The notes beneath the pieces were generated by a model. It made no database searches. It was not told where the DNA came from and saw only the letters and a list, made by a program, of their open reading frames with translations. This document shows positions 24,282 to 49,514 of a stretch of DNA of 64,000 nt, in pieces. How positions within the stretch are numbered: position 1 is the stretch's first letter; each line of letters begins with the position of its first letter. A program made the translations under genes and the position numbers. Source of the DNA: an uncultured Planctomycetales bacterium (GTDB taxonomy: Bacteria; Omnitrophota; Gorgyraeia; Gygaellales; Profunditerraquicolaceae); NCBI GenBank assembly GCA_964467905.1, contig CAYXSY010000007.1, forward strand, positions 116 to 64,115, in the 5' to 3' direction.

Positions 24282-24299
24282 ATTTAGATAACAACATAC

Positions 24300-24554
24300 T
24301 TGACAAGGCTCTAATAGTATGTTATTCTTTTCTTAACAATTTAAAAGAGCACAAGGTTGTGCTTAAGATAAAGGACAAAGGCGTTATATAACAATATAAC
24401 GCCTTTTTCTTTTTTATCCTATTCTATGTGAGAATAATTTTATAAAAGTAAGCCCTTCATGCCCGGTCACTTAGAGGGAGAACGGGGTTTTACTTTTTAT
24501 GTAAACAATGGCGTTTTATGCCGTAATCCGGCATAGAACGCCTTTTTATTTTTT
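24300..24554 (+). promoter_or_regulatory. promoter plus two tandem hexaloop-hairpin/terminator attenuators upstream of GAF-ANTAR paralog 2
   Basis: TTGACA (24300-24305), 17-nt spacer, TGtTATTCT (24320-24328). P1 AGCAC-AAGGTT-GTGCT at 24348-24363. P2 GAC-AAAGGC-GTT at 24374-24385, overlapping terminator 24377-24416 (GGCGTTATAT/ATATAACGCC + T-run). Second unit: AAAC-AATGGC-GTTT at 24503-24516, overlapping terminator 24510-24554 (14-bp stem + TTTTTATTTTTT). Confidence 0.7.
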
Positions 24555-24558
24555 AGCC

Positions 24559-25266
24559 ATGCAAAATTCATTTAATGAACAAATAAAGGCCCTTTCTAAA
24601 ATCAGTAAGGCGATTACTTCAGATTTCTATCTGGAGGATATATTGCGTCTGATTGTTACAGTTACGGCAGAAGTTTTAGATTCTAATATTTGTTCTTTGA
24701 TGCTTATTGATGAGAAAACTGGTGAATTAATTGTCCGGGCTACTCAGAGCGTAAGCGAAGAATACAATAAGAAGATGCCTCTTAAGGTTGGTGAAGGCAT
24801 TGCCGGCAAGGCGGTTGAACATAATAAGGCAATAGCAGTAAAGGATGTTACTAAAGAAAAAGAATATAAACATAAAGATGTCGCCAGAAAAGAAGGGCTC
24901 GTATCTTTGTTATGTGTCCCCATGTCGGTAAAGGGTAAAACAATCGGAGTAATTAATTGTTATACCGCCAAAGCACATAATTTCAGCGATACAGAGATAG
25001 AGATATTGACTACTATTGCCAATCAGGCGGCAGTAGCTATTGAGAATACCGAGCTTATGGTTAAAAGCAGGGTTATCCAGGAAGAACTGGAGACTCGCAA
25101 GAGGATTGAGCGCGCCAAAGGTGTTTTAATGCGTGATGAAAAACTCACTGAGGAACAGGCGTATTTAAAGATCCGTAAATATAGTATGGATAATCGTAAA
25201 AGCATGCGTGAAGTGGCGGAAGCGATTATCTTGGCAGCAGATATGAAGCAATTAATCAGGAGCTAA
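24559..25266 (+). CDS. GAF-ANTAR one-component RNA-binding antiterminator (paralog 2)
   Basis: Clear paralog of 19650-20378, with shared runs LRLIV.VTAEV, RATQS, GVINCYT, AAVAIEN and MRE.AEAIILA. The track start at 24508 lies inside the upstream terminator, so Met at 24559 (MQNSFNEQ...) is taken as the start. Confidence 0.85.
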   Translation: MQNSFNEQIKALSKISKAITSDFYLEDILRLIVTVTAEVLDSNICSLMLIDEKTGELIVRATQSVSEEYNKKMPLKVGEGIAGKAVEHNKAIAVKDVTKEKEYKHKDVARKEGLVSLLCVPMSVKGKTIGVINCYTAKAHNFSDTEIEILTTIANQAAVAIENTELMVKSRVIQEELETRKRIERAKGVLMRDEKLTEEQAYLKIRKYSMDNRKSMREVAEAIILAADMKQLIRS

Positions 25267-25368: not shown

Positions 25369-27021
25369 ATGAATCTTAGTAGGCCGAATGCGAATGATGC
25401 AACTGGTACGTTTAACCGCTCAAAAAATGTGGTTCCGGGTTCAGGTATTTGTTCCCGTTGTGTAGACGGCTGCAAGGGTAATTGTGAGATTTTTAAGGCA
25501 AGCTTCAGGGGCAGGGAAGTTATTTATCCGGGGCCTTTTGGTGATATAACCGCGGGTGCGGATAAAAATTATCCTGTCGATTATTCTCATTTTAATATCC
25601 AGGGCTATGCTTTAGGCGCTAAAGGTTTAAGTGAAGGTAGCGACGGTAACCCGGATAATACAAAATTCCCGGATGTGGATACTACGACAGAATACGGGTG
25701 GAGCTCTAAAGTTAAAATGGAAGTTCCTATATTTACCGGGGCTTTGGGTTCTACAGAGATTGCGCGTAAAAATTGGGAGCATTTTGCTGTAGGGGCTGGT
25801 ATATCAGGAATAACTTTGGTTTGCGGAGAAAATGTCTGTGGTATTGACCCCGGGCTTGAGCTTGATAGTAAAGGAAAAATTAAGAATTCTCCTGAGATGG
25901 ATCGTCGCATAGAAATATACAGGAGATTCCATAGGGGTTTTGGAGAGATCCTGGTGCAGATGAACGTAGAGGATACGCGTTTGGGAGTAGCTGAATATGT
26001 CCGTACAAAACATAAGTTAGAGACCATTGAGCTTAAATGGGGGCAAGGGGCTAAATGTATCGGAGGCGAAATAAAAGTCCGTAGCCTCGAACGGGCGCTG
26101 GAATTAAAGAAGCGGGGTTATATTGTTACTCCGGACCCGGGCTCAGAGGTTGTGCAGAAGGCGTTTAAAGATGGAGCGATTAAGGAATTTGAAAGGCATT
26201 CGCGCTTAGGTTTTGTCTCTGAAGAGGCATTCTTGGCGGAAATCAAACGCCTTAGAGATTTAGGTTTTAAGAGAATAACGCTTAAGACGGGGGCTTATTC
26301 TATGCGTGAATTGGCCATGGCTATCAAGTATTCTAGCCTTGCCGGGATTGATCTTCTGACTATTGACGGGGCGCCGGGAGGAACGGGTATGAGTCCGTGG
26401 CGGATGATGCAAGAGTGGGGCATCCCTACTTTTTATCTTGAAGCTTTGGCTTACGAGTTTTGTGATAAATTATCTAAGAAAGGCTTACGTGTGCCTGATA
26501 TCGCGATAGCCGGAGGGTTCTCAAGCGAAGACCATGTGTTTAAAGTAATTGCCATGGGCTCTCCTTATGTAAAGGCAGTTTGCATGGGCCGGGCGTTGAT
26601 GATTCCGGGTATGGTAGGCAAAAATATAGGACTTTGGATTAAGGAAGGCGATGTCCCCGTTACAATTTCTTCATATGGGCACACGGAAAAAGAGATATTT
26701 GTCTGTTATGAAGAGCTTATCGAGAAATATGGTAACGAGATGAAGGATATCCCCCTTGGTGCCATAGGTATATATTCTTTTGTCCAAAAAATAAAGGTTG
26801 GGTTGCAGCAACTTATGGCTGGCAGCAGGAATTTCCGGATAAGCACTATCTCCCGCAATGACCTCATGAGTTTGACCGAAGATGCGGCTAAGGTATCAGG
26901 AATTCCTTATGTGATGGATGCTTATCGCAGCGAAGCGGAGTCGATACTAAACGGGGAATCCGATGTAAGACCAGAAAGAGGTTTTGATCGGCAGCGCTTT
27001 AGCGTATCCGCAAGGAGGTAA
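25369..27021 (+). CDS. FMN-binding glutamate-synthase-domain-2-like protein (GltS-related, stand-alone)
   Basis: Homologous by eye to the GltB FMN/synthase domain (IDGAPGGTGMSP versus ISGGDGGTGASP in the window's own GltB; AGGFSSEDHVFKVIAMG). Has an N-terminal CSRCVDGCKGNCE Cys cluster. Confidence 0.7.
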   Translation: MNLSRPNANDATGTFNRSKNVVPGSGICSRCVDGCKGNCEIFKASFRGREVIYPGPFGDITAGADKNYPVDYSHFNIQGYALGAKGLSEGSDGNPDNTKFPDVDTTTEYGWSSKVKMEVPIFTGALGSTEIARKNWEHFAVGAGISGITLVCGENVCGIDPGLELDSKGKIKNSPEMDRRIEIYRRFHRGFGEILVQMNVEDTRLGVAEYVRTKHKLETIELKWGQGAKCIGGEIKVRSLERALELKKRGYIVTPDPGSEVVQKAFKDGAIKEFERHSRLGFVSEEAFLAEIKRLRDLGFKRITLKTGAYSMRELAMAIKYSSLAGIDLLTIDGAPGGTGMSPWRMMQEWGIPTFYLEALAYEFCDKLSKKGLRVPDIAIAGGFSSEDHVFKVIAMGSPYVKAVCMGRALMIPGMVGKNIGLWIKEGDVPVTISSYGHTEKEIFVCYEELIEKYGNEMKDIPLGAIGIYSFVQKIKVGLQQLMAGSRNFRISTISRNDLMSLTEDAAKVSGIPYVMDAYRSEAESILNGESDVRPERGFDRQRFSVSARR

Positions 27022-27292: not shown

Positions 27293-27399
27293 TTGACAAA
27301 ACCCTCTGATATGGTAAAATAACTATACATAGGAGCAGTAGCAAGACAGAGAAGTCTTTTAGTAGAGCAAATGCTACTAAAAGACTTTTTTTATTTTTT
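27293..27399 (+). promoter_or_regulatory. promoter plus AAGAC-N6-GTCTT hairpin and leader terminator of the hydrogenase operon
   Basis: TTGACA (27293-27298), 16-nt spacer, TGgTAAAAT (27312-27320). Hairpin AAGAC-AGAGAA-GTCTT at 27343-27358 overlaps the 5' arm of a 13-bp terminator (27353-27365/27374-27386) followed by TTTTTTTATTTTTT. Confidence 0.7.
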
Positions 27400-36773: not shown

Positions 36774-37227
36774 GCACAAAATTGTTGTCTTAGGTATAGG
36801 TTCTGATTTCAGGGGTGATGATGCCTCTGGGCTTATGGCCGCTAGAATTGTTTTAAGAAGGATATCCAGGCGTAAGACGCCAGGCAGAATTAGCGCGGTC
36901 TTTGCAGAGTCAGTTCCTGAAAATATCACAGGTTTAATCCGTAAGATAAAACCTGGCTACGTTATAGTTATTGATTCTGCGCATATAGGTAAGCAGGCTG
37001 GAGATTTTTGTGTCATTGAGCCCAGCGATATAGAAAATAATCTTGTCAGTACCCATAAAGTGTCTTTGGACGTGTTCTCTAGATATCTTGAGCAGAGTAT
37101 AGGTTGTAAAATGTTTATCGTTGGGATACAGCCTAAGTCTATAAAATTCGGTTCTTCTGTTACTAAACAGGTAGCATTAGCCGCAAAAAAAGTAGCCGTT
37201 ACGTTAATTGAGCTTGACAAGGCCTGA
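36730..37227 (+). CDS. hydrogenase maturation endopeptidase (HycI-like)
   Basis: KIVVLGIGSDFRGDDASG, then DSAH and VSTHK. Met at 36730 is chosen; the track start at 36688 lies deeper inside the previous gene. Confidence 0.75.
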   Translation: MNHLKEALRGKLKNKHKIVVLGIGSDFRGDDASGLMAARIVLRRISRRKTPGRISAVFAESVPENITGLIRKIKPGYVIVIDSAHIGKQAGDFCVIEPSDIENNLVSTHKVSLDVFSRYLEQSIGCKMFIVGIQPKSIKFGSSVTKQVALAAKKVAVTLIELDKA

Positions 37228-37359
37228 TTATATGGTATAATTTACTTGTAATAGATAAGAAAGACAAAGATGTCTTCAGGCAAATAGGCCTGAAGATTTT
37301 TTATTCTCTAGGACTAAGGCGTCCTTTTATCCGGTGGTGGGTAGAGGGACGTTTTTTTT
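37214..37359 (+). promoter_or_regulatory. promoter plus two tandem hairpin/terminator units upstream of the sigma-factor gene
   Basis: TTGACA (37214-37219), 16-nt spacer, TGgTATAAT (37233-37241). AAGAC-AAAGAT-GTCTT at 37261-37276 overlaps terminator TCTTCAGGC/GCCTGAAGA + TTTTTT (37273-37302). GGAC-TAAGGC-GTCC at 37311-37324 overlaps a second stem (37320-37328/37343-37351) followed by T8. Confidence 0.65.
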
Positions 37360-37375: not shown

Positions 37376-37900
37376 ATGAGTGATTTTGAGATTTTATTAA
37401 AAAGAATATCGCCGGTTTTAAAAAGAATAACCTTTAAATTAGGCGGATATCATACTTTTCTTAACGAAGAAGATTTATATCAGGAAGCCCTGGTATTTTT
37501 ATGGCAAAAATTAGGCTTGGGCGAGCTTTCTGATAAGACGGATAGTTATATACTACAGGGTTGTTATTTTCATCTTAAGAATTATATAAGAAAAAAATAC
37601 AAGAAGATTAATTTTATAAGCATAGATAATATTATAAATGCTGAAGAAGATAACACGCGCAGTGGTTTTTCATTGAAAGATGAGAAATCGCTTTATTACA
37701 GAGACGAGCTTAATGCCAGGTTTATTGCGGATTCTATACGCAATAACGGGTTAGACGATAGAGAAAAAGAGATTGTGGGCTATTATGCGCAGGGTCTTAC
37801 TACCAGGGACATAGGGAAACGATTAGGCCTTTCCCATGTACGTATAGTAAAAATAACCGCCGAAATACGGGTTAAATGCCGCAAGCATATAGATTATTGA
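37376..37900 (+). CDS. ECF-like sigma-70 family factor (regions 2 and 4 only)
   Basis: Region 2 is EDLYQEALVFLWQK. Region 4 HTH is REKEIVGYYAQGLTTRDIGKRLGLSHVRIVKI. No anti-sigma gene is evident next to it. Confidence 0.65.
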   Translation: MSDFEILLKRISPVLKRITFKLGGYHTFLNEEDLYQEALVFLWQKLGLGELSDKTDSYILQGCYFHLKNYIRKKYKKINFISIDNIINAEEDNTRSGFSLKDEKSLYYRDELNARFIADSIRNNGLDDREKEIVGYYAQGLTTRDIGKRLGLSHVRIVKITAEIRVKCRKHIDY

Positions 37901-37971
37901 TTTTGTTGTTACCAATTCATGTAAATTGTTACTTGTATAAGTGAAACACATTGATGTGTAGTAGTAAAGCC

Positions 37972-38009
37972 AAGGATGCTTAAGTTTTAAGTATCCTTTT
38001 TTTGTTTTT
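37972..38009 (+). terminator. intrinsic terminator after the sigma-factor gene
   Basis: A 12-bp stem AAGGATGCTTAA/TTAAGTATCCTT (one G-U pair), 3-nt loop, then TTTTTTTGTTTTT. Confidence 0.75.
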
Positions 38010-38012
38010 ATC

Positions 38013-38066
38013 AAGACGTTGGTGTCTTTTTGGCATTGGAGTCGCCAGGAAGGCGCCATTTTTTTT
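38013..38066 (+). promoter_or_regulatory. AAGAC-N6-GTCTT hairpin plus U-run, then a GC hairpin plus T8; alternatively a sigma54-like -24/-12 element
   Basis: AAGAC-GTTGGT-GTCTT at 38013-38028, followed by TTT. CGCC-AGGAA-GGCG at 38043-38055, flanked by TGG/CCA and followed by T8 (38059-38066). TGGCAT-N5-TCGC at 38031-38045 matches the GG/GC spacing of sigma54 promoters. Confidence 0.4.
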
Positions 38067-38092
38067 GCGCAACCAGAAAAAGGAGAGGTTTT

Positions 38093-38860
38093 ATGCGTAA
38101 GGCTATGTGCTTATTATTGTTAGTTTTTGCTCTTCACGGATTTGTTCTCGCAGGCGAAAGTCCAGAAGCCACATTGTTAGGAAAATCCGGTTTTGAGGTC
38201 AGCGGCGATGTTTCGTTTTTCACTCAATACATATGGAGAGGTTTTGTTTTAGACAGAGATGCTGTTTTTCAGCCGGGTATTTATATATCCAGTCCAAAGT
38301 CTAAGTTCGGCAGGGTAAAAGGCGGGTTTTGGTCTAATGTTCCTTTGCAGAATAAAGATGATTTGAGTTCGCAAGAGTACGATTATATATTCGATTACAC
38401 TTATGATTTTAAATATGCGAGCGTATCTTTAGGGCATACTTATTATGATTTTTCCGGCACCCATACTTATAGCAAAGAGTTTTACGTTGGCTTGAACCTG
38501 CCGGGGATCTTTCTATCCCCATCAGTGTATTATTACCGCGATTACGGAGACCCTAAACATGGCGGCGGGCTTGGTAGTTATACCGTTGTAAGCGCTTCCT
38601 ATAGCTTACCGCTAGACTTAAAAAATATACCCTGCAGCCTTGATTTATCCGGTCATGTAGGTTTTAACCATAATTTGTTCATGGATGGCGATGGCGGAGA
38701 TGTTGCTTTAAAAGTAGGTTTTACAGTGCCAATTACCAAGAATCTTAAACTGACGCCCAATGTAAATTATTCTATTCCTTTCGGCGATTTAAGGGATAAG
38801 GACCACGCTAATCAGAAAGACAGGTTCTTTGGAGGCGGAACTTTAGCGTATGTATTTTAG
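38093..38860 (+). CDS. outer-membrane beta-barrel porin (TorF/Gcw_chp-like) linked to amtB
   Basis: Signal peptide MRKAMCLLLLVFALHGFVLA. Alternating beta-strand pattern, an SGDVSFFTQYIWRGF N-terminal motif, and a C-terminal ...LAYVF. Good RBS (AAAGGAGAGG) before ATG 38093. The track TTG start at 38030 is rejected. Confidence 0.6.
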   Translation: MRKAMCLLLLVFALHGFVLAGESPEATLLGKSGFEVSGDVSFFTQYIWRGFVLDRDAVFQPGIYISSPKSKFGRVKGGFWSNVPLQNKDDLSSQEYDYIFDYTYDFKYASVSLGHTYYDFSGTHTYSKEFYVGLNLPGIFLSPSVYYYRDYGDPKHGGGLGSYTVVSASYSLPLDLKNIPCSLDLSGHVGFNHNLFMDGDGGDVALKVGFTVPITKNLKLTPNVNYSIPFGDLRDKDHANQKDRFFGGGTLAYVF

Positions 38861-38881: not shown

Positions 38882-40111
38882 ATGGTAAACGCAGGTGATA
38901 CGGCGTGGGTTTTAATTTCGGCAGCTTTGGTAATGTTAATGGCACCGGCTTTGGCATTCTTCTACGGTGGGATGGTCAGGCGTAAGAATATTTTAAGCGT
39001 CCTTATGCAATGTTTTATTGTTCTTTGCGTTCTAAGCGTGCAGTGGGTATTATTCGGGTACAGTCTTTCTTTCCATCCTTCAGGCGGATTCTGGGGTGGG
39101 TTTGGCTGGGCGGGATTAAATGGAGTAGCTTTAGAGCCGTACGCGGATTACGCAGCTACGATACCGCATCAGGCGTTTATGATTTTCCAGGGCATGTTTG
39201 CGGTCATAACCCCGGCTTTGATTATCGGAGCTTTTGCCGAGAGGATGAAGTTTTCCTCTTTCCTTGTTTTTACATTGCTATGGGCAATGTTTGTATATAA
39301 CCCTCTTTGTCACTGGGTTTGGGGTATAGGGGGATGGCTTCGTAATTTAGGAGCGCTTGATTTTGCCGGAGGTACGGTTGTGCATATCAATGCTGGTATA
39401 GCTGCTTTAGTAACTGCTTTTGTAATCGGCCGCAGGAAGAATCTTGAGCAGAATATTCCTGCACCGCACAATATGCCTTTTGTAATATTAGGTACAGCTT
39501 TACTTTGGTTTGGTTGGTTTGGTTTCAATGCCGGCAGTGCTTTATCCGCCAACGGTATTGCAGTGAACGCTTTTGTAGTTACTAATACTGCTGCTGCAGC
39601 CGCAGGATTAAGTTGGGCATTGATTGAGTGGATACGTAATGGCAAGCCTACAATATTTGGGCTTGCAAGCGGCGCGGTTGCCGGATTAGTGGCCATTACG
39701 CCCGCGGCAGGATATGTTAATGCTATCTCGGCCATCATAATAGGCATAATGGTAAGCATGTTTTGTTTTACTGCCGTAAGCGTTATAAAGCCAAAACTCG
39801 GATACGATGATTCGCTTGATGCTTTTGGGGTGCATTGTGTAGGAGGCATTTGGGGAGCTTTGGCTACCGGATTGTTTGCTTCCAAGGTAGTCAATCCTTC
39901 CGGATCAGACGGGTTGTTTTTCGGAAATCCCAATCAGTTTACGGTGCAGTTAATAGCAGTTTTAATAACTATAGTCTATACAGCCGTTGTTACCATGATT
40001 ATATATAAGGTTGTGGATTTGTTTATCGGGGTCAGGGTTGAAGAGAAGGATGAATTAATCGGTCTGGATGTTACTCAGCACCATGAAAGAGCGTACACTA
40101 TATTAGAATAG
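38882..40111 (+). CDS. amtB: ammonium transporter
   Basis: AFFYGGM, DFAGGTVVHINAG and DAFGVHCVGGIWG (the twin-His pore motifs), with 11 TM helices. Confidence 0.93.
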   Translation: MVNAGDTAWVLISAALVMLMAPALAFFYGGMVRRKNILSVLMQCFIVLCVLSVQWVLFGYSLSFHPSGGFWGGFGWAGLNGVALEPYADYAATIPHQAFMIFQGMFAVITPALIIGAFAERMKFSSFLVFTLLWAMFVYNPLCHWVWGIGGWLRNLGALDFAGGTVVHINAGIAALVTAFVIGRRKNLEQNIPAPHNMPFVILGTALLWFGWFGFNAGSALSANGIAVNAFVVTNTAAAAAGLSWALIEWIRNGKPTIFGLASGAVAGLVAITPAAGYVNAISAIIIGIMVSMFCFTAVSVIKPKLGYDDSLDAFGVHCVGGIWGALATGLFASKVVNPSGSDGLFFGNPNQFTVQLIAVLITIVYTAVVTMIIYKVVDLFIGVRVEEKDELIGLDVTQHHERAYTILE

Positions 40112-40122
40112 GGAGGATTATA

Positions 40123-40464
40123 ATGAAGTTGATAATTGCTATAATACAGCCGTATAAGCTAGAAGAAGTAAAAGAGGAGCTTTATAAGTCGGAAGTTAAT
40201 CTTATTACTGTCAGCGAAGTCCTAGGCCATGGCCGCCAGAAAGGTGTCACGGAATTCTACCGTGGTAATAAAGAAACCGGCAACCTCCTGCGTAAAATAC
40301 GCCTGGAAATAGCGGTAAATGAGGATTTTGTTGAGCCTACGATAAAGGCGATCGTCAAAGGGGCTAAAACAGGAGAGACAGGAGACGGAAAGATTTTTAT
40401 TCTGGATTTAAAAGAGTGCGTGCGGATACGTACGGAAGAAAGGGGCTCATTGGCTATAGGGTGA
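40123..40464 (+). CDS. glnK: P-II nitrogen regulatory protein
   Basis: 113 aa: MKLIIAIIQPYKLEEVKEEL, a T-loop GHGRQKGVTEFYRG containing the Tyr, and a DGKIFI motif. Adjacent to amtB. Confidence 0.92.
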   Translation: MKLIIAIIQPYKLEEVKEELYKSEVNLITVSEVLGHGRQKGVTEFYRGNKETGNLLRKIRLEIAVNEDFVEPTIKAIVKGAKTGETGDGKIFILDLKECVRIRTEERGSLAIG

Positions 40465-40531
40465 AAAAAGATGTTACCAAAGTACAGGTTTATTTACTTG
40501 TATATATAGATAATCAAAGCTCGTTTTTTTA

Positions 40532-40611
40532 GCACATCGTAGTGCAAAAATAGGCATAAAGAAGACAGGGGCGTTCTTCAATCGCAAGGAAGGACGCCTC
40601 TTTATTTTTTT
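40532..40611 (+). promoter_or_regulatory. dual hexaloop hairpins plus terminator between glnK and glnN
   Basis: P1 GCAC-ATCGTA-GTGC at 40532-40545. P2 GAC-AGGGGC-GTT at 40564-40575, overlapping a 13-bp terminator stem (40567-40579/40589-40601) followed by TTTATTTTTTT. An extended -10 TGgTATAAT at 40620-40628 lies downstream of the terminator. Confidence 0.6.
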
Positions 40612-40656
40612 ATAGGCTGTGGTATAATAAAGAAAATTATTCATAGGAGGGTGTAT

Positions 40657-42849
40657 ATGAGTATCCGACAGGAAGCATTATTTAAGATAAAAAGTGTTGA
40701 ATTGCCGAAAGTGGTTTTGCCGAAGAAAACATCTTCTTATTTCGGAGAAAATACTTTTAGCCTTCAGGCTATGCAGAAACATATATCCAAAAGCACTTTT
40801 GAAGCTTTTAAGAAATGGATTTCTGAAGGTAAGACTATTAGCTTAGAACAGGCTAATGAGATTGCCTCTGCCATGAAGGACTGGGCAATATCCAAGGGCG
40901 CTACATATTATACGCATTGGTTCCAGCCTATGACCGGTCTAACCGCGGAAAAGCACGATAGTTTTATATCTATATCTGCTCCGGGAAAGGTCATTGAGAG
41001 ATTTTCAGGCTCAAAGTTGATTCAGGGAGAGCCTGACGCTTCGAGTTTCCCTTCCGGAGGAATACGTGCTACTTTTGAAGCGCGCGGTTACACCGCTTGG
41101 GATCCTTCAAGCCCGGCATTTATTATTGAGAGCAAGCTTGGCAAGACCCTATGTATACCCACCATATTTATTTCTTATCATGGAGAGTCTCTCGATAAAA
41201 AGCTGCCTCTTTTAAGATCAGATGAAGCTTTAAGTAAGGCGGCTATAGGCTTGCTTAAACTATTTGGCCACAAAAATGTAAAAAAAGTATTTTCTACATG
41301 CGGCCCGGAGCAGGAGTATTTCTTGATTGATAAGAATTATTATAATTTACGTCAGGATCTGATTATGGCAGGCAGGACTCTTGTAGGTGCTCCTTCTCCT
41401 AAGGGACAGCAGCTTGAGGATCAGTATTTTGGCACGATTAAAGAGCGGGTAGTAAATTTTATGTTTGAGGTGGCAGAAGAAGCTTATAAGCTGGGTATTC
41501 CTCTTATGACGCGCCATAACGAAGTTGCACCTCACCAGTATGAATTCGCACCTATCTTTGAAGAATCGAATATTGCCGCAGATCATAATCAGCTTTTGAT
41601 GGAGTTAATGAAAAAAGTTGCATTGAGGCATAATTTAGTCTGTCTTTTGCATGAGAAACCCTTTGCCGGGATTAATGGCAGCGGGAAGCATCTTAATTGG
41701 TCTCTTGCTGATGATAAAGGAAATAACTTATTGAATCCAGGAGAGACTCCGGAAAGCAATTTACAATTTTTAGCTGTGCTTGCAGCTGTCTTGAGAGCGG
41801 TTTATCTGCATGCGGATCTGTTGCGTGCTTCTGTGGCTTTGGCTGGCAATGAACATCGCCTTGGTGCAAATGAAGCACCTCCTGCGATTATCAGTGTTTT
41901 CTTGGGCGAACAATTGACCAATATTCTTGATATGATCGAGAAGGGTTCTAAGAGCAGTGTTTCTAAACGGGATATTATTGATCTGGGTATTGCGCGTTTG
42001 CCCAGGTTTAATAAGGACACCACTGACAGAAATCGCACTTCACCTTTTGCTTTTACCGGTTCGAAATTCGAATTTCGCGCGGTGGGTTCATCGCAAAACA
42101 TATCAACGCCTATTACGGTAATTAATACCATTATTGCCGAAAGCCTCGATTATGTGGCAGAGAAGATAAATAGGGCCCAAGAAGGCAGGGATTTCAACAG
42201 CGCGGTTATGCGAGTCATTAGTGAGATTATCAAAGAGACTAAAGACGTGCGTTTTGAGGGGAATAATTATTCTGAGGATTGGTTAAAGGAGGCAAAGAAA
42301 AGAGGCCTGCCAAATGTCGCCGCTACTTATGAAGCGCTCGAGGCTTTAACTAGGAAGCAAAATATAACCATGTTTGAGAAATATAAAGTTTTCTCTAAAG
42401 AAGAGCTTCTTGCAAGATACCATATATGGGTGCATATGTATAACCTTACTCTAGAGATTGAGGCCAATACCTTGAATGAAATGGTTAATGCTTCAGTGGT
42501 GCCCGCAGGCTATGAATATGAGAAATTGCTTGCGCGTACGCTTGATGAGTTGATAAGACTTCAAAAGACCGCTGGTTTGAAGCTGGATGCAGCTGCCGTT
42601 AAGGATAAGAAGGAGCATTTAAGAGATATAGTTTCCAAAATTTATTACGTGCGCCATAATACCGCAGAGATGGTTAAATTGCTGGAGCATGCGCAAAAAA
42701 TTAATAATGAGAAACGCGCCCAGCTTTATTTTAAAGAGCTTAAGCCGCTGATGGATCATATACGCAGGCACGTAGATCAGCTTGAGTGCGTTGTTTCTGA
42801 TGATGCTTGGGATCTTCCTAAATACAGAGAAATGCTTTTTATAAAATAA
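40657..42849 (+). CDS. glnN: type III glutamine synthetase
   Basis: About 730 aa, the GSIII length class, with GSIII-type catalytic motifs (FGENTF near the N-terminus, NGSGKHLNWS, NRTSPFAFTGSKFEFR). AGGAGG lies 6 nt upstream of ATG 40657; the track uses GTG 40651. Confidence 0.88.
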   Translation: MSIRQEALFKIKSVELPKVVLPKKTSSYFGENTFSLQAMQKHISKSTFEAFKKWISEGKTISLEQANEIASAMKDWAISKGATYYTHWFQPMTGLTAEKHDSFISISAPGKVIERFSGSKLIQGEPDASSFPSGGIRATFEARGYTAWDPSSPAFIIESKLGKTLCIPTIFISYHGESLDKKLPLLRSDEALSKAAIGLLKLFGHKNVKKVFSTCGPEQEYFLIDKNYYNLRQDLIMAGRTLVGAPSPKGQQLEDQYFGTIKERVVNFMFEVAEEAYKLGIPLMTRHNEVAPHQYEFAPIFEESNIAADHNQLLMELMKKVALRHNLVCLLHEKPFAGINGSGKHLNWSLADDKGNNLLNPGETPESNLQFLAVLAAVLRAVYLHADLLRASVALAGNEHRLGANEAPPAIISVFLGEQLTNILDMIEKGSKSSVSKRDIIDLGIARLPRFNKDTTDRNRTSPFAFTGSKFEFRAVGSSQNISTPITVINTIIAESLDYVAEKINRAQEGRDFNSAVMRVISEIIKETKDVRFEGNNYSEDWLKEAKKRGLPNVAATYEALEALTRKQNITMFEKYKVFSKEELLARYHIWVHMYNLTLEIEANTLNEMVNASVVPAGYEYEKLLARTLDELIRLQKTAGLKLDAAAVKDKKEHLRDIVSKIYYVRHNTAEMVKLLEHAQKINNEKRAQLYFKELKPLMDHIRRHVDQLECVVSDDAWDLPKYREMLFIK

Positions 42850-42905
42850 AAGCTTTTAGATATATAGAGTACGCTGTAGTATTCTAAAGAATATTTTCTA
42901 AGAAA

Positions 42906-42964
42906 GAACATCGACGTTCATAAAAGTTGGATTATTTTTCCAGCTTGGATGAACGTCTTTTTTT
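42906..42964 (+). promoter_or_regulatory. hexaloop hairpin overlapping a terminator between glnN and the mini-NtrC/gltB genes
   Basis: GAAC-ATCGAC-GTTC at 42906-42919 overlaps the 5' arm of stem GACGTTCAT/ATGAACGTC (42913-42921/42949-42957), followed by TTTTTTT. Confidence 0.55.
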
Positions 42965-43024
42965 ATCCATTATGCCATAATGGAATATTCTTATAACAAG
43001 CATTGATTAAGGTTTGGGCAAAAT

Positions 43025-43402
43025 ATGATAACTATATTGATAGCTGATGATGAAATTAAGGCAAAAGAAAACCTTGTTAACGTGTTAAAGCAGGGCGGCT
43101 ATGACTTAGCGGATGGTTTCGCGGCGGATAATACTATAAGATTTATGAGGAAGAAGGATATAAGTGATTTATCTTTCGTCAGGGATATAGTTATTGAGTT
43201 AGATGATTCTTTGATTAAAGAGAATAAGGGCGCATTATACAGAACTGTACTTGAGGCCATAGAAAAGCCTTTGTTTGAGCGCATACTGGAGCGTACAGAG
43301 GGCAATCAACTTAAAGCCGCTAGGATACTAGGGATAAACCGTAATACTATGCGTACCAAGATGAAGAAATTCGGGATAAATATAAACAAATGGAAAATAT
43401 GA
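43025..43402 (+). CDS. mini NtrC-like protein: receiver-domain remnant plus Fis-type HTH, no AAA+ domain
   Basis: The N-terminus MITILIADDEIKAKENLVNVLKQGGYDL looks like receiver beta1-alpha1-beta2. The C-terminus LYRTVLEAIEKPLFERILERTEGNQLKAARILGINRNTMRTKMKKFGI is a typical NtrC/Fis HTH_8. Only 125 aa. Overlaps the gltB start. Confidence 0.6.
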   Translation: MITILIADDEIKAKENLVNVLKQGGYDLADGFAADNTIRFMRKKDISDLSFVRDIVIELDDSLIKENKGALYRTVLEAIEKPLFERILERTEGNQLKAARILGINRNTMRTKMKKFGININKWKI

Positions 43403-46400
43403 GAGAATATAATCATTTTCCCAGAAAGCAAGGGCTTTACGATCCTGCATTTGAGCATGATGCGTGTGGAGTAGGTTTTGTCTGTAATATCAAAGGTAAA
43501 CGCAGTAATAAGATCGTCCGGCAGGGGCTTGAAGTTTTGGAGCATCTGTCTCATCGTGGCGCAACCGGGGCCGACCCTAAGACAGGAGACGGGGCGGGGA
43601 TATTAATACAGATGCCACATAACTTTTTTGCTGCTATTTTAGATGGCACTAATATTAATCTTCCTGTAGCCGGAGAATACGGCACAGGGTTAGTATTCCT
43701 TCCTGTTGATAGTGCTGAGCGTAATTGGTGCAAGGACTTATTTAGCAAGGTTATCAAAGAAGAGGGGCAGGTTCTATTGGGCTGGAGGAAAGTTCCCGTA
43801 GATAACAGTTGCATAGGGCATACAGCGCGCAGCAGCCAGCCTGAAATCGAGCAGCCTTTCATTAAGAAAAGCGGCGAATTCTCGGATGACCTTGGCTTTG
43901 AAAGAAAACTTTATATTATCAGGAAGAGAATAGAAAACCAAGTGCGGTCTTCAAAGATAAGGCAAAAGAGTTTCTTTTATATTACCAATCTTTCTTCCCG
44001 GACTTTTTCTTATAAAGGTCTTTTAATGAGTGAGCAGTTAAGGAGTTTCTTTAAGGACTTATCCGACGAGCGGATTGCTAGCGCCATATCCCTGGTGCAT
44101 TCCAGATACAGCACCAATACTTTTCCCACCTGGGATTTGGCTCAGCCGTTTAGGTTTATCGCCCATAATGGAGAGATTAATACTTTACGCGGGAATATAA
44201 ATTGGATGCGCGCCAGACAAGGGCTATTGAAAAGTAAGTTGTTCGGTAAGAAGTTAAAACAAATATTTCCTGTTATTGTTCCGGGTGGAAGCGACTCGGC
44301 TACGCTGGATAATGTGTTTGAATTACTCATGCTTTCAGGAAGGGACCTGGCGCATGTTATGCTTATGCTTATACCCAGTGCCTGGGAACAGAACAAACTT
44401 CTTGCTAAGGGATTACGGGATTTCTATAAATATCACGCTTGTATTATGGAACCCTGGGATGGCCCGGCAGCGATTGCTTTTAGCGACGGGAAAAGAGTTG
44501 GTGCGGTGCTTGATAGAAACGGGTTAAGGCCGGCGCGCTATATTATTACCAGAGACGATACCGTGGTTATGGCATCGGAGGTGGGGGTTTTGGATATCCC
44601 TGCAGAAGATATCATTAGTTCGGGCAGGCTTAATCCGGGTAAAATATTCTTTATTGATACAGAACAGGGCCGTATTGTTGATGATAAGCAGATTAAAGAA
44701 GGCATCTCAAAGAAATCTGAATTTGGTTCTTGGTTGAAAAACAATATGCTTGAGTTGGATAATCTGCCTTCTGTTAAGGATAAGAAGCCGGACAAAACAG
44801 ATACGGCTGTTTTGTTGAAGGCTTTTGGTTATAGTCGCGAGGACTTAAAATTCATTATCAAACCCATGTTTGAAAACTCTCAGGAGCCGGTGGGTTCAAT
44901 GGGTAATGATACCCCGCATGCTGTTTTATCGAAGAGGAGCCAGCTACTATATTCTTATTTTAAGCAACTGTTTGCACAGGTGACGAATCCCGCTATCGAT
45001 CCTATCAGGGAGGAACTCGTTATGAGTTTAGACACTTACCTGGGGCCGGAGGGTAATTTACTTGATGAATCAGCTTTACATTGTCATAAGCTGCAAGCCA
45101 GGCGTCCGGTACTTACTGACGAAGAGCTTGCAAGAATACGTTTTATAAAAATTAATGGTTTTAAAACCAAGACTATCCCGTTGCTTTTTAAGGCAGCTGA
45201 TAAAAAAGATTTTTTGAGAGCGCTTGAGCGCATATGCAGGGAGTCAGAGAAGGCCATTAAGGATAAATATACGTTTATTATTTTAAGTGATAGGGGAGTC
45301 AGCAAGGAACATGCGGCTTTGCCTGCTTTACTTGCAACCGGAGCCGTGCACCATTATTTGATAAAGAAAGCATTGCGTAATCAGATAAGCATCATATTAG
45401 AGAGTGCCGAGCCCAGGGAGGTTCATCATTTTGCTCTGCTATTTGGCTACGGCGCAGATTGTATCAATCCCTATCTTGCTTATCGGGCGTTGGGTTATAT
45501 CATAAATGAAGAAAAAACCAAAATCGATTTAAAGACTGCAACGCTCCGTTATATAAAAGCCGTAGATAAGGGGATCTTAAAGATTCTTTCTAAAATGGGG
45601 ATTTCTACTCTACAGAGCTACCGCGGGGCCCAAATATTTGAAGCTTTTGGTATAAACGATAAGGTTATAGAGCGCTGTTTTGCAGGGACGGCCTCCAGAA
45701 TAGGCGGTGTTGATTTTGAGCAGATTCGCAAGGAGTGTGTTTTAAGGCACGGTGATGCTTTTGTCTCCATAGGATCAGCCAATCCTAATCTGGACACAGG
45801 AGGTATATATCAATATAAGAAAGACGGGGAGTTTCATCTCTGGAATCCCGATAGCATATCCGCCTTGCAGGATTCCGTCTGGAATAATGATTATAATAAA
45901 TACAAGATTTTTGCCGGATTAATAAACAATCAACAGGGCAATCCTACGACATTAAGGGGATGTTTGAAGTTTAAAGTTGCTCAACCTGTACCGATAGAGC
46001 AAGTTGAGTCAGCTGAATCTATAGTTAGGCGTTTTGTAACCGGAGCAATGAGTTTTGGATCGATCAGCAAGCAGGCGCACGAGACGATGGCGATAGCTAT
46101 GAATAGGATGGGCGCTAAGTCTAATAGCGGAGAGGGCGGAGAAGATCCGGAGCGTTTCTTTCCACTCCCAAACGGGGATTTACGCAGAAGCGCGATTAAA
46201 CAAGTTGCATCCGGGAGGTTCGGCGTTACCACTAATTACCTGATTAACGCAGATGAATTACAGATTAAGATTGCGCAGGGGGCAAAGCCGGGAGAGGGGG
46301 GGCAGCTGCCGGGGCATAAAGTAAGCCCTATAATTGCCAAGACGCGTTATACAACCGCAGGCGTAACTTTGATTTCTCCACCTCCGCATCACGATATTTA

Positions 46401-47931
46401 TTCGATTGAGGATTTGGCACAGCTGATATTTGATTTAAAGAATACCAACCCCCGTGCGCGAGTAAGCGTTAAGCTTGTATCCGAGATAGGAGTAGGGACA
46501 ATAGCTGCCGGAGTAGCTAAAGGACATGCTGATATGATTTTGATTTCAGGGGGTGACGGCGGCACAGGAGCTTCCCCGCTTAGTTCTATAAAACACGCAG
46601 GTCTGCCTTGGGAATTGGGAATCTCCGAGACGCATCAGACTTTGGTCCTAAATGATTTAAGAAGCAGAGTAAGGCTGCAAGCCGACGGACAGATGCGCAC
46701 CGGACGAGATATAGCAGTTGCCTGTCTTCTGGGAGCGGAAGAATTCGGGTTTGCTACGGCAGTCTTGATTACTCTTGGTTGTGTTATGCTGAGGCATTGC
46801 CATTTAAATAATTGTTCAGTGGGCATAGCTACGCAGGAAGAGCTATTGTGCAATAAATTTCATGGTAAGCCGGAGTATATAATTAATTATTTTAGATTTG
46901 TGGCTGAGGAGTTGCGTGAGATTATGGCATCTCTTGGCTTAAGGACTATTAACGAGATGGTAGGTAGGACCGAGTTTCTGGAGATAAATAAAGATATACT
47001 GCCCTGGAAAGCAACGGGCCTGGATTATTCCCGCATTCTTTACAAGCCTAAGACAGCAAAGAGAGAGGATGTTTATTGTTCTGTTGCCCAGAACCACGGT
47101 CTGGAGAATATTTTAGATAAGAAATTAATAGTTTTGTCAGATAAAGCCCTTAAGAATAAACAAAGTGTTAATATGGAGCTTACGGTTAACAACACTAATC
47201 GTACTACGGGCGCGATGTTAAGCGGTGAAGTTTGCCGTCTCCACGCAGAGGAGGCTCTTGCAGAAGATACTATTTACTGTAAGTTTAGGGGAGTTGCCGG
47301 ACAGAGCTTCGGTGCTTTCCTGGCTAAAGGTATTACTTTTGAACTTGAGGGTATGAGTAATGATTATGTAGGGAAAGGGATTTCAGGTGGCAAGATTATC
47401 ATTTATCCTGATCGTAAAGCTAGGTATGCACCGGAAGAAAACATAATTATAGGTAATACTACTTTTTACGGGGCGATAAATGGCGAGGCCTATATAAACG
47501 GTATAGCTGGTGAGCGTTTTTGCATACGTAATTCCGGGCTCCTGGCAGTAGTAGAGGGGGTAGGAGATCACGCCTGTGAATATATGACTGGGGGTAAGGT
47601 TGTTGTGTTGGGCAAAACAGGGAGGAATTTCGCTGCGGGTATGTCCGGAGGGGTTGCTTATGTTTATGATGAAAGTAATGATTTCAGAAATAAATGCAAT
47701 ATGGAGATGGTTGAATTAGGGGCCCTGGATAAAGAAGATAGAGAAAATCTGCATATGCTGCTTAATAATCACTATAGATATACAAAAAGTAATAAAACGC
47801 GCATTATACTTGATGATTTCGTGACTCAAGCAAAGAAATTTGTCAAAGTAATGCCGATTGAATATAAGAAGATATTAGAACACAAGAAGCTGGAAAAGAA
47901 AATGGAGCTTGCGGAGGTATCGGACGGTTAA
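43390..47931 (+). CDS. gltB: glutamate synthase large subunit
   Basis: 1513 aa. Ntn-amidotransferase Cys in HDACGVGF, a central domain, an FMN/3Fe-4S domain (SGEGGE, ISGGDGGTGASP, C..C cluster region), and a C-terminal GXGXG beta-helix domain. The exact start (43390 or 43399) is uncertain. Confidence 0.95.
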   Translation: MENMREYNHFPRKQGLYDPAFEHDACGVGFVCNIKGKRSNKIVRQGLEVLEHLSHRGATGADPKTGDGAGILIQMPHNFFAAILDGTNINLPVAGEYGTGLVFLPVDSAERNWCKDLFSKVIKEEGQVLLGWRKVPVDNSCIGHTARSSQPEIEQPFIKKSGEFSDDLGFERKLYIIRKRIENQVRSSKIRQKSFFYITNLSSRTFSYKGLLMSEQLRSFFKDLSDERIASAISLVHSRYSTNTFPTWDLAQPFRFIAHNGEINTLRGNINWMRARQGLLKSKLFGKKLKQIFPVIVPGGSDSATLDNVFELLMLSGRDLAHVMLMLIPSAWEQNKLLAKGLRDFYKYHACIMEPWDGPAAIAFSDGKRVGAVLDRNGLRPARYIITRDDTVVMASEVGVLDIPAEDIISSGRLNPGKIFFIDTEQGRIVDDKQIKEGISKKSEFGSWLKNNMLELDNLPSVKDKKPDKTDTAVLLKAFGYSREDLKFIIKPMFENSQEPVGSMGNDTPHAVLSKRSQLLYSYFKQLFAQVTNPAIDPIREELVMSLDTYLGPEGNLLDESALHCHKLQARRPVLTDEELARIRFIKINGFKTKTIPLLFKAADKKDFLRALERICRESEKAIKDKYTFIILSDRGVSKEHAALPALLATGAVHHYLIKKALRNQISIILESAEPREVHHFALLFGYGADCINPYLAYRALGYIINEEKTKIDLKTATLRYIKAVDKGILKILSKMGISTLQSYRGAQIFEAFGINDKVIERCFAGTASRIGGVDFEQIRKECVLRHGDAFVSIGSANPNLDTGGIYQYKKDGEFHLWNPDSISALQDSVWNNDYNKYKIFAGLINNQQGNPTTLRGCLKFKVAQPVPIEQVESAESIVRRFVTGAMSFGSISKQAHETMAIAMNRMGAKSNSGEGGEDPERFFPLPNGDLRRSAIKQVASGRFGVTTNYLINADELQIKIAQGAKPGEGGQLPGHKVSPIIAKTRYTTAGVTLISPPPHHDIYSIEDLAQLIFDLKNTNPRARVSVKLVSEIGVGTIAAGVAKGHADMILISGGDGGTGASPLSSIKHAGLPWELGISETHQTLVLNDLRSRVRLQADGQMRTGRDIAVACLLGAEEFGFATAVLITLGCVMLRHCHLNNCSVGIATQEELLCNKFHGKPEYIINYFRFVAEELREIMASLGLRTINEMVGRTEFLEINKDILPWKATGLDYSRILYKPKTAKREDVYCSVAQNHGLENILDKKLIVLSDKALKNKQSVNMELTVNNTNRTTGAMLSGEVCRLHAEEALAEDTIYCKFRGVAGQSFGAFLAKGITFELEGMSNDYVGKGISGGKIIIYPDRKARYAPEENIIIGNTTFYGAINGEAYINGIAGERFCIRNSGLLAVVEGVGDHACEYMTGGKVVVLGKTGRNFAAGMSGGVAYVYDESNDFRNKCNMEMVELGALDKEDRENLHMLLNNHYRYTKSNKTRIILDDFVTQAKKFVKVMPIEYKKILEHKKLEKKMELAEVSDG

Positions 47932-47932
47932 A

Positions 47933-49357
47933 ATGGGCGATATCAAGGGGTTCTTAAAGGTTAAAAGGGATACGGTCGATTACCGGCCGGTATGTGAAAG
48001 GGTAAACGATTTTTGTGAAGTTTGTCTTTTGCCTAAAGAAGAAAAGTCTAAGGCTCAAGCATCACGTTGTATGGATTGCGGCACTCCTTTTTGTAATTGG
48101 GCTTGTCCATTAGGAAATTATATACCGGAATGGAATGATTTTATGTTTAAGGGCAATTGGGAGAAAGCATTGGAGCTTTTATCGGCGACGAACAACCTGC
48201 CTGAGGTTACCGGCAGAATTTGCCCAGCCCTATGTGAATATTCCTGCGTTTTGGGCATTAATGACGAAGCTGTTTCTATCAAGGATAACGAGCTTGCAAT
48301 TATCGAGTACGGTTTCAAGCATAATTTAATCAAACCTAGGCCGCCGGAGCGCCGTACGGGAAAGAAAGTAGCTGTAGTCGGCTCGGGTCCGGCCGGGCTC
48401 TCTTGTGCAGATCAGTTAAATAAGGCAGGCCACAGGGTTGTTGTTTTTGAAAGAGATGATGCTATAGGCGGTATCTTGCGTTACGGGATACCGGATTTTA
48501 AATTGGAAAAAACTATACTTCAGCGGCGCCTGAATATTATGAAAAAGGAAGGCATCAAATTTATGACTTCGGTTAATATCGGGTTTGACATGGGTATAGA
48601 CAAGCTAAAGAAAGAATTTGATGCCATATGTCTTGCCGGTGGCAGCCGCGTTCCGCGCGATTTAAATATAGCAGGCAGAGAATTGAAGGGGATACATTTT
48701 GCCATGGATTATCTTATGCAGTCAAATAGGAGGATAGCTAAACAAAAAATAAGCCTAGAAAAGCTCATTGATGCTAAGGGCAAGAAGGTAGTAGTTATCG
48801 GAGGAGGAGATACTGGAGCTGATTGTGTGGGTGTCGCCCATCGTCAAGGAGCTTCCTGTATTGTGCAAATAGAATTGTTGCCTAAGCCTTCGGAATCAAG
48901 GACTAAAGATTTCCCTTGGCCGAAATACCCCGCAATTTTAAAGACTTCTACCAGTCATGATGAAGGCGGAGAGCGTCAATGGTCAATTCTCACCAAGCGT
49001 TTTATCGGAGAAGGTGGAAGGGCTAAAAAATTGCTTTGTGCCAAGGTTAATGTAATCAGGGATCCCTCCGGAGTTATTAAGATAGAGGAAATACGGGGGA
49101 CAGATTTTGAAATCGATGCCGATTTAGTTATTCTGGCGCTTGGGTTTTTGTGCCCTGAGAAAAAAGGCATTATCGAGGATTTGGGCCTTGAGCTTGATCA
49201 GCGCGGTAACGTTAAAACAGATATCAACTTTATGACTTCTATAAAAGGTATATTCTGCGCAGGAGATATGCATAGAGGACAATCTTTGGTGGTCTGGGCT
49301 ATTTTAGAGGCGCGTCGGGCAGCTCTTAGCATAGATAGGTATCTTATGTCTGATTAA
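47933..49357 (+). CDS. gltD: glutamate synthase small subunit (NADPH)
   Basis: RCMDCGTPFC and CPALCEYSC clusters, plus VAVVGSGPAGL and VVVIGGGDTGADC dinucleotide folds. Met at 47933 (MGDIKGF) follows the gltB stop by 1 nt. The track start at 47909 is rejected. Confidence 0.93.
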   Translation: MGDIKGFLKVKRDTVDYRPVCERVNDFCEVCLLPKEEKSKAQASRCMDCGTPFCNWACPLGNYIPEWNDFMFKGNWEKALELLSATNNLPEVTGRICPALCEYSCVLGINDEAVSIKDNELAIIEYGFKHNLIKPRPPERRTGKKVAVVGSGPAGLSCADQLNKAGHRVVVFERDDAIGGILRYGIPDFKLEKTILQRRLNIMKKEGIKFMTSVNIGFDMGIDKLKKEFDAICLAGGSRVPRDLNIAGRELKGIHFAMDYLMQSNRRIAKQKISLEKLIDAKGKKVVVIGGGDTGADCVGVAHRQGASCIVQIELLPKPSESRTKDFPWPKYPAILKTSTSHDEGGERQWSILTKRFIGEGGRAKKLLCAKVNVIRDPSGVIKIEEIRGTDFEIDADLVILALGFLCPEKKGIIEDLGLELDQRGNVKTDINFMTSIKGIFCAGDMHRGQSLVVWAILEARRAALSIDRYLMSD

Positions 49358-49388: not shown

Positions 49389-49497
49389 TTGACTTATAAT
49401 TATGTCGTGGTATAATTTAAGTGTAATTCAGGGTAGAATTGCTATAAAACAATGGCGTTTAGAGATAGGAAAATTGTCTCTAAGCGCCATTTTTATT
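49389..49497 (+). promoter_or_regulatory. promoter plus canonical dual-hexaloop (ANTAR-type) attenuator of the pyrG-carAB-purF operon
   Basis: TTGACT (49389-49394), 16-nt spacer, TGgTATAAT (49408-49416). P1 GTAATTC-AGGGTA-GAATTGC at 49423-49442. 4-nt linker. P2 AAAC-AATGGC-GTTT at 49447-49460, overlapping a 14-bp terminator stem (49452-49465/49477-49490) followed by TTTTATT. Confidence 0.75.
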
Positions 49498-49514
49498 GAG
49501 TAAAAGGAAAGATT

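Follow-up and report, generated by a model that had tools for sequence, protein, structure and literature searches.

The region between glnK and glnN, the gene for a type III glutamine synthetase, in a 64,000-nucleotide stretch of DNA (called the window here, meaning the whole stretch that was analysed) quite probably carries an ANTAR-type antitermination leader at positions 40532-40611. We base this reading on two hairpins, P1 and P2, whose hexaloops both have A at position 1 and G at position 4, on the overlap between P2 and the 5′ arm of a terminator, and on the presence of two GAF-ANTAR genes in the window. The host belongs to an uncultured lineage of Candidatus Omnitrophota, and many metagenome-assembled genomes of that phylum encode proteins 81-86% identical to its GlnN. 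The original prediction had described P1, P2, a 13-bp terminator, and an extended -10 element in this region, all of which are present (Table 1), and had named neither the ANTAR mechanism nor its regulators.

Structure and conservation of the proposed glnN leader

The RNA substrate of ANTAR proteins was defined experimentally for EutV and holds for NasR and AmiR: it consists of dual hexaloops with A1 and G4, with P2 overlapping a terminator (Ramesh et al. 2012, PMC3369931). P1 and P2 of the glnN leader are two tandem short hexaloop stem-loops with this signature, and ANTAR-domain proteins are encoded in the same genome. The terminator stem has 13 pairs, including 2 G-U pairs, with a folding energy of -20.3 kcal/mol, and is followed by TTATTTTTTT (40602-40611), which gives the U-tract UUAUUUUUUU with 9 U within 10 nt; positions 40567-40611 therefore have the G+C-rich stem-loop directly before a U-tract that marks an intrinsic terminator. 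Our consensus terminator scan, which allows loops of up to 8 nt, overlooked this terminator only because its loop has 9 nt. Folding of the whole intergenic region gave z = -5.5 relative to shuffled sequences, and the minimum-free-energy structure includes both P1 and the terminator.

The terminator 5′ arm opens with the P2 loop and 3′ strand, a shared stretch of 9 nt that makes P2 and the terminator mutually exclusive. Because of this overlap, and because both hairpins bear the ANTAR signature, the terminator before glnN is very probably conditional, as had been proposed originally. With one bulged U, P2 can also pair beyond its core, as GAAGAC/G(U)UCUUC (40561-40579), and the resulting 6-bp form is somewhat more stable. 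Given +0.2 kcal/mol for the P2 core and -20.3 kcal/mol for the terminator, the default outcome would be termination, and read-through would need a factor that holds P2; a P2 that is near 0 kcal/mol on its own is what one would expect of a protein-dependent antiterminator. The sequence GCAC-N6-GTGC occurs exactly twice in the window (24349 and 40532; 0.26 expected). The earlier observation that the P1 stem is the same as that of a site at 24348 holds; the two stems are identical because both appear to be ANTAR P1 hairpins.

Table 1. Positions of the genes, leader elements, and covariance-model (R1) matches in the window
Feature	Position	Strand	Score or match	Remark
GAF-ANTAR protein 1	19650-20378	+	Pfam GAF_2 1.9e-21, ANTAR (PF03861) 1.3e-17	Candidate antiterminator
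GAF-ANTAR protein 2	24559-25266	+	Pfam GAF_2 2.5e-24, ANTAR (PF03861) 8.9e-21	Candidate antiterminator
ECF-type sigma gene (sigL)	37376-37900	+	Passes TIGR02937	
BOX copy, GTTACC-N14-GTTACTTGTAT	37908	+	1 mismatch	Just 3′ of sigma gene, before porin-amtB-glnK leader
Porin-like open reading frame	38030-38860	+	No Pfam or NCBIfam match	
amtB	38882-40111	+	Pfam	
glnK (P-II)	40123-40464	+	Pfam P-II E=1.3e-26	Final gene of porin-like/amtB/glnK unit
glnK-glnN intergenic region	192 nt	+		Holds P1, P2, and terminator
BOX, GTTACC-N14-TTTACTTGTAT	40473-40503	+	Exact match	Promoter-shaped
P1, GCAC-AUCGUA-GUGC	40532-40545	+	-5.3 kcal/mol	4-bp stem, hexaloop A1/G4
P2, GAC-AGGGGC-GUU	40564-40575	+	Core +0.2 kcal/mol	Hexaloop A1/G4
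Terminator 5′ arm, AGGGGCGUUCUUC	40567-40579	+		9-nt loop follows
Terminator 3′ arm, GAAGGACGCCUCU	40589-40601	+		
Extended -10, TGTGGTATAAT	40618-40628	+	Hexamer 6/6	TGgTATAAT at 40620-40628; start predicted near 40635
glnN Shine-Dalgarno, AGGAGGG	40645-40651	+		
glnN, type III glutamine synthetase	ATG 40657, end 42849	+	Pfam GSIII_N E=8e-76 plus Gln-synt_C	
hth8, small Fis/NtrC-type HTH_8 protein	43025-43402	+	Pfam, NCBIfam	
gltB	43390-47931	+		
gltD	47909-49357	+		
R1 match, glnN	40532-40575		29.5 bits, E=1.5e-5	All 44 model positions covered
R1 match, hth8-gltB	42868-42919		E=2.7e-6	Best in window
R1 match, GAF-ANTAR2	24348-24385		E=1.3e-4	
R1 match, GAF-ANTAR2	24481		Weaker	Second tandem unit
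R1 match, pyrG-carAB	49425-49460		E=1.2e-3	
R1 match, ECF sigma gene	37234-37275		E=0.018	
R1 match, ECF sigma gene	37279		Weaker	Second tandem unit
R1 match, porin-amtB-glnK	37946		Weaker, 13.7 bits, E=0.13	

Genes around the locus were called with Pfam, NCBIfam, and the list of open reading frames. For an independent comparison, an alignment (A1) was made of 23 dual-hairpin sites taken only from related Omnitrophota loci and containing no sequence of the window, a covariance model (R1) was built from it, and the 64-kb window was searched with filters off. This search is an unbiased test, and its result for the glnN leader (E=1.5e-5), together with the conservation described below, excludes a chance origin of the site. 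All of the R1 matches in Table 1 are in coding orientation, with a terminator overlapping each of them; those at 42868, 24348, 49425, and 37234 all precede nitrogen or glutamine genes. Every A1 site has AC/GU as the closing pairs of its two hairpins and G at position 4 of both loops (23/23), and loop position 1 is A in 16 of 23 P1 and 19 of 23 P2 hairpins. The fourth pair of P1 is formed in 20 of the 23 sites by three pair types, and the outer pairs covary, with double changes at 7 pairs and a covariation score that none of 500 shuffles reached. A simple hexaloop scanner overlooked P2 of the glnN leader at a stem threshold of 4 bp; lowering the threshold to 3 bp gave 7 matches against 2.35 ± 1.7 in shuffles, a modest excess from which we accept just four matches as convincing, those whose terminators have 13 bp or more.

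Among the relatives, the orthologous glnN leaders of L007, L010, L017, and L023 retain both hairpins, the terminator, and the extended -10, and the terminator structure is kept in 10 glnN leaders; the distance from P1 to P2 is 29-39 bp and that from P2 to the -10 element is 38-51 bp. The locus of L008 is organised as a pure operon, with a glnK-glnN gap of 33 nt (3967-4001) containing no leader, terminator, or promoter, and has one ANTAR leader 5′ of amtB.

Candidate regulators, transcript origin, and the probable promoter behind the gate

Either of the two GAF-ANTAR proteins may act on the glnN leader. An orthologue of GAF-ANTAR1 adjoins sigL-BOX-amtB-glnK-glnN in L001-L003, and in L014 (1-292) a GAF-ANTAR gene lies immediately 5′ of glnN. 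GAF-ANTAR proteins were called uncharacterised in 2012. Both GAF domains show weak, sub-threshold similarity to the N-terminal parts of PtsP (EI-Ntr) and NifA, which contain GAF domains that respond to glutamine and/or 2-oxoglutarate; from this similarity, a reasonable guess is that the signal sensed is probably 2-oxoglutarate and/or glutamine.

The original prediction saw no convincing sigma70 promoter before P1 and inferred that glnN is under read-through control from the amtB-glnK transcript. The first part stands, as the consensus scan found no sigma70-type -35/-10 pair between the glnK stop (40464) and P1. Read-through is possible as well, because no terminator lies between the glnK stop and P1 and glnK transcripts would thus enter the leader. 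What the prediction did not take into account is a conserved, promoter-shaped element, which we call BOX, that starts 9 nt after the glnK stop and 28 nt 5′ of P1. Its two blocks have a fixed spacing of 14 nt, as in -35/-10 geometry, and the gene order in relatives is GAF-ANTAR1, sigL, BOX, (porin) amtB, glnK, BOX, leader, glnN, BOX, leader, hth8, gltB. BOX thus precedes the amtB, glnN, and hth8-gltB leaders, and it is also found before a glnN leader that has no glnK upstream (L023).

Metagenome contigs scanned for the exact pattern gave 131 BOX matches, 109 of which have AC-NNNGNN-GT hairpin signatures within 79 nt (about 8% expected by chance); some 22-29 of the 131 resemble chance occurrences in coding sequence. 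BOX is followed by a hexaloop hairpin overlapping a terminator in 98 of 127 instances, a combined count that we used because the split into sites with P1 and P2 and sites with P2 only is unreliable, the procedure stopping at the first hairpin with a terminator-like stem. The first recognisable gene after those 98 is amtB, glnK, or the porin gene in 43, glnN in 18, and hth8 in 13, with none recognisable in 24. The first hairpin follows BOX by 2-10 nt (mode, 10), and a P1-containing transcript must therefore start inside or just after BOX.

Since BOX is conserved, has promoter geometry, and precedes ANTAR leaders whatever gene lies upstream, it is most likely the leader's own promoter, of a non-sigma70-consensus type. 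It has no A at the -11 position in any register, and because the sequence is not sigma70-like we infer an alternative sigma factor; the product of the adjacent sigL gene, a sigma factor of the extracytoplasmic function (ECF) type, is the obvious candidate for reading it. BOX could alternatively be an activator site, and the HTH_8 protein is another candidate for binding it. This protein has 125 amino acids, with a Fis/NtrC-type C-terminus and the stub of a receiver-like N-terminus (MITILIADDE...); the end of its reading frame overlaps the start of gltB (43390), and the gene is kept beside glnN and gltB in nearly all Omnitrophota relatives. Readings of 40470-40500 as NtcA (GTA-N8-TAC) or GlnR/TnrA (TGTNA-N7-TNACA) sites did not fit by eye. 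A sigma54 promoter with NtrC sites (TGGCAC-N5-TTGCW, in which GG and GC stand 10 nt apart) was also considered and rejected; the closest sequence, TAGCAC-ATCGT-AGTGCA, has AG in place of GG, and its GC is one position off register.

Behind the gate, the original prediction had placed a possible bypass promoter for glnN, and the comparison with relatives strengthens that suggestion. The 9-mer TGGTATAAT (40620-40628) is identical to the -10 region of two full-consensus promoters in the window (37214-37241 and 49389-49416), and TGnTAnnAT occurs within 150 nt 5′ of glnN in 12 of 17 Omnitrophota relatives, compared with 0.04 expected per locus. No adequate -35 hexamer stands at a spacing of 16-18 nt; the best candidate, TTTATT (3/6, 40601-40606), lies inside the U-tract and was not reported by the scan. 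Extended -10 promoters need no -35. We regard the element as a credible conserved glnN promoter, and because the motif is present also in relatives whose glnN has no ANTAR leader (L003, L005, L006, and L012), it appears to be the promoter that glnN had ancestrally in the clade. A similar motif, TATGCCATAAT (42971-42981; of the TGCATAAA type in relatives), lies 3′ of the terminator in the hth8-gltB leader, so that a gate followed by a putative weak constitutive promoter is a recurring design at this locus.

In the mechanism that we propose, polymerase would enter from upstream, most likely after starting at BOX, with some perhaps continuing from amtB-glnK; polymerase from either source would meet the same gate. 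P1 would be transcribed first and then P2. Without a bound antiterminator, the weak P2 would lose to the 13-bp terminator, which uses the P2 loop and 3′ strand, and transcription would end at the U-tract near 40605-40611. An active dimer of either GAF-ANTAR protein would bind both hexaloops (A1/G4, with their AC...GU closing pairs) and keep P2 closed, thereby blocking the terminator so that polymerase reads into glnN. The TGTGGTATAAT element would give basal, ANTAR-independent transcription of glnN from about 40635.

Weighing the antitermination reading against alternatives

Several observations weigh against an antitermination leader. The P2 core has only three base pairs (six with the bulge), and no curated family matched: no family of Rfam 15, which may hold no model for so short a motif, reached its gathering threshold anywhere in the window. 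The A1 sites were pre-selected by a pairing filter (at least 3 pairs), so the figure of 100% pairing in A1 is partly by construction; P1 is sequence-invariant among glnN orthologues (GCAC/GUGC), so the covariation comes from paralogous leaders only. In one subclade of glnN leaders, comprising L001 (3775-3900), L002 (3860-3950), and the metagenome loci L086, L091, L105, L110, L114, and L146, P2 (GAAC-AGGGGC-GUUC) and the terminator come directly after BOX and no P1 is recognisable, and L001 has an extra inserted hairpin; in this subclade, either a single hairpin is sufficient, or P1 is formed differently, or our model is incomplete. Lastly, a strong promoter directly 3′ of the gate would limit the weight that the gate can have for glnN.

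The alternative that survives best, and which we still consider improbable, is modelled on the EutX/Rli55 decoy: BOX, P1, P2, and the terminator would make up a stand-alone small RNA of about 105 nt that titrates an ANTAR protein, and glnN would be transcribed solely from 40618-40628. A promoter-like BOX of its own, a strong terminator, and a separate promoter afterwards are all compatible with such a unit. Formation of the terminator, however, destroys P2, which makes the decoy unlikely because the terminated RNA would be left without the dual-hairpin binding site, and binding to the nascent RNA would necessarily yield read-through into glnN. In addition, leader units with no intervening promoter are found directly before pyrG (49425) and in most amtB leaders.

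Less credit still goes to the possibility that the GCAC-N6-GTGC and GAAC-N6-GTTC palindromes are DNA operators bound by a regulator, for example HTH_8, that acts on the extended -10. The half-sites are conserved in sequence and the spacer is variable in glnN orthologues, GCAC/GTGC resembles NtrC half-sites, and hth8 is beside glnN in nearly all relatives; yet the G4 that is invariant in the loops of P1 and P2 is not matched by the C at position 3 that the symmetry of a palindrome demands, and paralogous leaders show covariation in their stems (e.g., UAC/GUA, ACAC/GUGU, and AAUUC/GAAUU). The strong matches to the covariance model are all confined to the transcribed strand, a terminator overlaps P2 in every case, and the ranges of the P1-P2 and P2-to-(-10) distances given above show no helical phasing.

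A plain operon boundary ranks lower again and seems to us distinctly unlikely: an unconditional terminator would end the amtB-glnK transcript, the extended -10 would be the sole glnN promoter, and P1 and P2 would be fortuitous. The strength of the terminator, the 3-bp core of P2, and the conservation of the post-terminator promoter even in leaderless relatives fit this explanation, but it does not account for the match of an independent covariance model at the site, for the retention of P1, P2, and their overlap with the terminator in orthologous leaders and in at least five other leaders of the window, or for the invariance of loop G4 and the closing pairs. ANTAR proteins are encoded, moreover, and the BOX-leader module recurs where the upstream gene is not glnK.

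A metabolite riboswitch (e.g., for glutamine) or a leader-peptide attenuator is very unlikely, since the nitrogen context and the superficial resemblance of the terminator CGUUC...GGAAGGACG to the glnA RNA motif are outweighed by the lack of any Rfam family at E<0.8 in 40400-40720 or at gathering score in the window, by an element too small for a three-way junction, and by small reading frames in the intergenic region that are mechanical only, with none conserved. The glutamine riboswitches (glnA RNA and Downstream-peptide motif) had no match to their Rfam models in 40400-40720 at a permissive E<=10, and nothing else relevant appeared there at that cutoff. We also asked whether the conserved 5′ UUUACUUGUAU pairs with the UGUGGUAUAAU motif; it does not.

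Related leaders and a possible nitrogen circuit

Other ANTAR-type leaders in the window stand before genes of nitrogen metabolism and before candidate regulators. Following gdhA, the interval 24290-24555 has a TTGACA-17-TATTCT promoter and then two tandem leader/terminator units, at 24348-24415 (P1 GAGCAC-AAGGUU-GUGCUU, P2 GAC-AAAGGC-GUU) and at 24481-24551 (P1 GAGA-ACGGGG-UUUU, P2 AAAC-AAUGGC-GUUU), that directly precede GAF-ANTAR2 and the gene for a GltB-domain protein (25369-27021). GAF-ANTAR2 probably starts at ATG 24559, because the mechanical start of its reading frame at 24508 falls inside the second terminator, and, with its own gene directly behind two ANTAR leader units, it probably autoregulates. 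Between glnN and hth8-gltB (42868-42981) there is a leader with P1 AGUAC-GCUGUA-GUAUU, P2 GAAC-AUCGAC-GUUC, and a terminator GACGUUCA...UGAACGUC plus U7, after which comes the extended -10-like motif described above; BOX is upstream of this leader in most relatives and missing in the window.

The interval 49389-49500 carries a TTGACT-16-TGgTATAAT promoter, then an ANTAR leader (P1 GUAAUUC-AGGGUA-GAAUUGC, P2 AAAC-AAUGGC-GUUU) and a terminator of 17-18 bp directly before pyrG-carA-carB, and these glutamine-consuming amidotransferase genes thus appear to belong to the same regulon. The interval 37214-37355 has a perfect sigma70 promoter (TTGACA-16-TATAAT with TG), immediately followed by TTTACTTGTAAT, which is the BOX 3′ half; two hexaloop-hairpin/terminator units, AAGAC-AAAGAU-GUCUU and GGAC-UAAGGC-GUCC, then lie before sigL, and L001-L003 have the same layout. 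This arrangement suggests that the ECF-type sigma factor is itself behind ANTAR gates. In the interval 37908-38010, the BOX copy comes before P1 ACAC-AUUGAU-GUGU, a P2 whose pairing is poor (loop AAGGAU), and a terminator of 12 bp (37972-37998), all of them upstream of porin-amtB-glnK. The first of these genes encodes a protein of about 250-276 amino acids, conserved in L002, that may be an ammonium-related outer-membrane porin, as judged from its signal-peptide-like N-terminus and its beta-rich aromatic C-terminal end (...TLAYVF). A further hairpin, AAGAC-AGAGAA-GUCUU, overlaps a 19-bp terminator behind a TGGTAAAAT promoter-like motif at 27312-27390, before a membrane-complex (Mrp/Nuo-like antiporter subunit) gene; R1 matches it only weakly (E=0.39), and a P1 could not be made out clearly.

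The mechanism proposed for glnN is of a known kind. As in the EutV-controlled eutP, eutG, eutS, and eutA leaders of Enterococcus faecalis, there are two A1/G4 hexaloops with sequence-specific closing pairs, P2 overlaps the terminator, the protein has an ANTAR output domain, and several leaders of one gene cluster form a regulon; the Omnitrophota system differs in that its sensor is a GAF domain and not a phosphorylated receiver, its targets are ammonium-assimilation rather than ethanolamine genes, both hairpins have AC/GU closing pairs, and a conserved promoter comes after the terminator. NasR at nasF (Klebsiella) and AmiR at amiE (Pseudomonas) likewise are ANTAR proteins that prevent termination in a 5′ leader on a nitrogen-related signal, with the A1/G4 hexaloop required, whereas their sensor is a NIT domain (nitrate) or the partner AmiC, there is a single leader per operon, and no bypass promoter downstream has been described. 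In Escherichia coli, glnA is under dual-promoter control (glnAp1/glnAp2), with induction through NtrC and sigma54 at initiation. A basal or constitutive route and a nitrogen-induced route to glutamine synthetase are common to both systems; the Omnitrophota locus is proposed to use antitermination instead of control of initiation, and it has the two routes in the opposite order along the DNA. The association of ANTAR with glutamine synthetase and P-II genes has been noted before, and leaders before P-II, ammonium transporter, glutamine synthetase, and glutamate synthase genes were already reported (PMC3369931; commentary, PMC3369936). The predicted nitrogen regulons of Desulfotomaculum acetoxidans, D. 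reducens, and Pelobacter carbinolicus also have many leaders per genome (PMC3369931, PMC3369936); what sets the present one apart is the phylum, the type III glutamine synthetase, the dedicated BOX, and the adjacent ECF-type sigma gene.

We put forward tentatively, as an idea that is possible rather than probable, that a three-layer Omnitrophota circuit runs ammonium assimilation. The adjacent ECF-type sigma factor would recognise BOX (GTTACC-N14-TTTACTTGTAT), and from BOX every leader would start; the GAF-ANTAR proteins would gate every leader; and post-gate extended -10 promoters would guarantee basal glutamine synthetase and glutamate synthase. The circuit would cover amtB-glnK, glnN, hth8-gltBD, and probably pyrG-carAB and the regulators themselves, with the sigma gene and one ANTAR gene placed behind ANTAR gates. 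If true, this would be a feed-forward/autoregulatory cascade in place of NtrBC/sigma54, GlnR, or NtcA, a circuit that has been previously undescribed.

The conditional terminator before glnN can now be given a proposed mechanism and likely regulators, the two GAF-ANTAR proteins. New features are the host phylum, a type III glutamine synthetase as target, regulators of the GAF-ANTAR type, the close link to a conserved, non-canonical, promoter-like BOX beside an ECF-type sigma gene, and the conserved post-gate promoter. The locus is compact and offers a protein-RNA pair open to testing, for which 2-oxoglutarate or glutamine is the obvious physiological signal, and the layout of BOX, gate, and bypass promoter, found in more than 100 environmental contigs, can serve as a regulon marker in the annotation of Omnitrophota. 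BOX may in addition show which promoters an orphan ECF-type sigma factor recognises, and ANTAR-based nitrogen control would be extended to an uncultured phylum and to type III glutamine synthetase.

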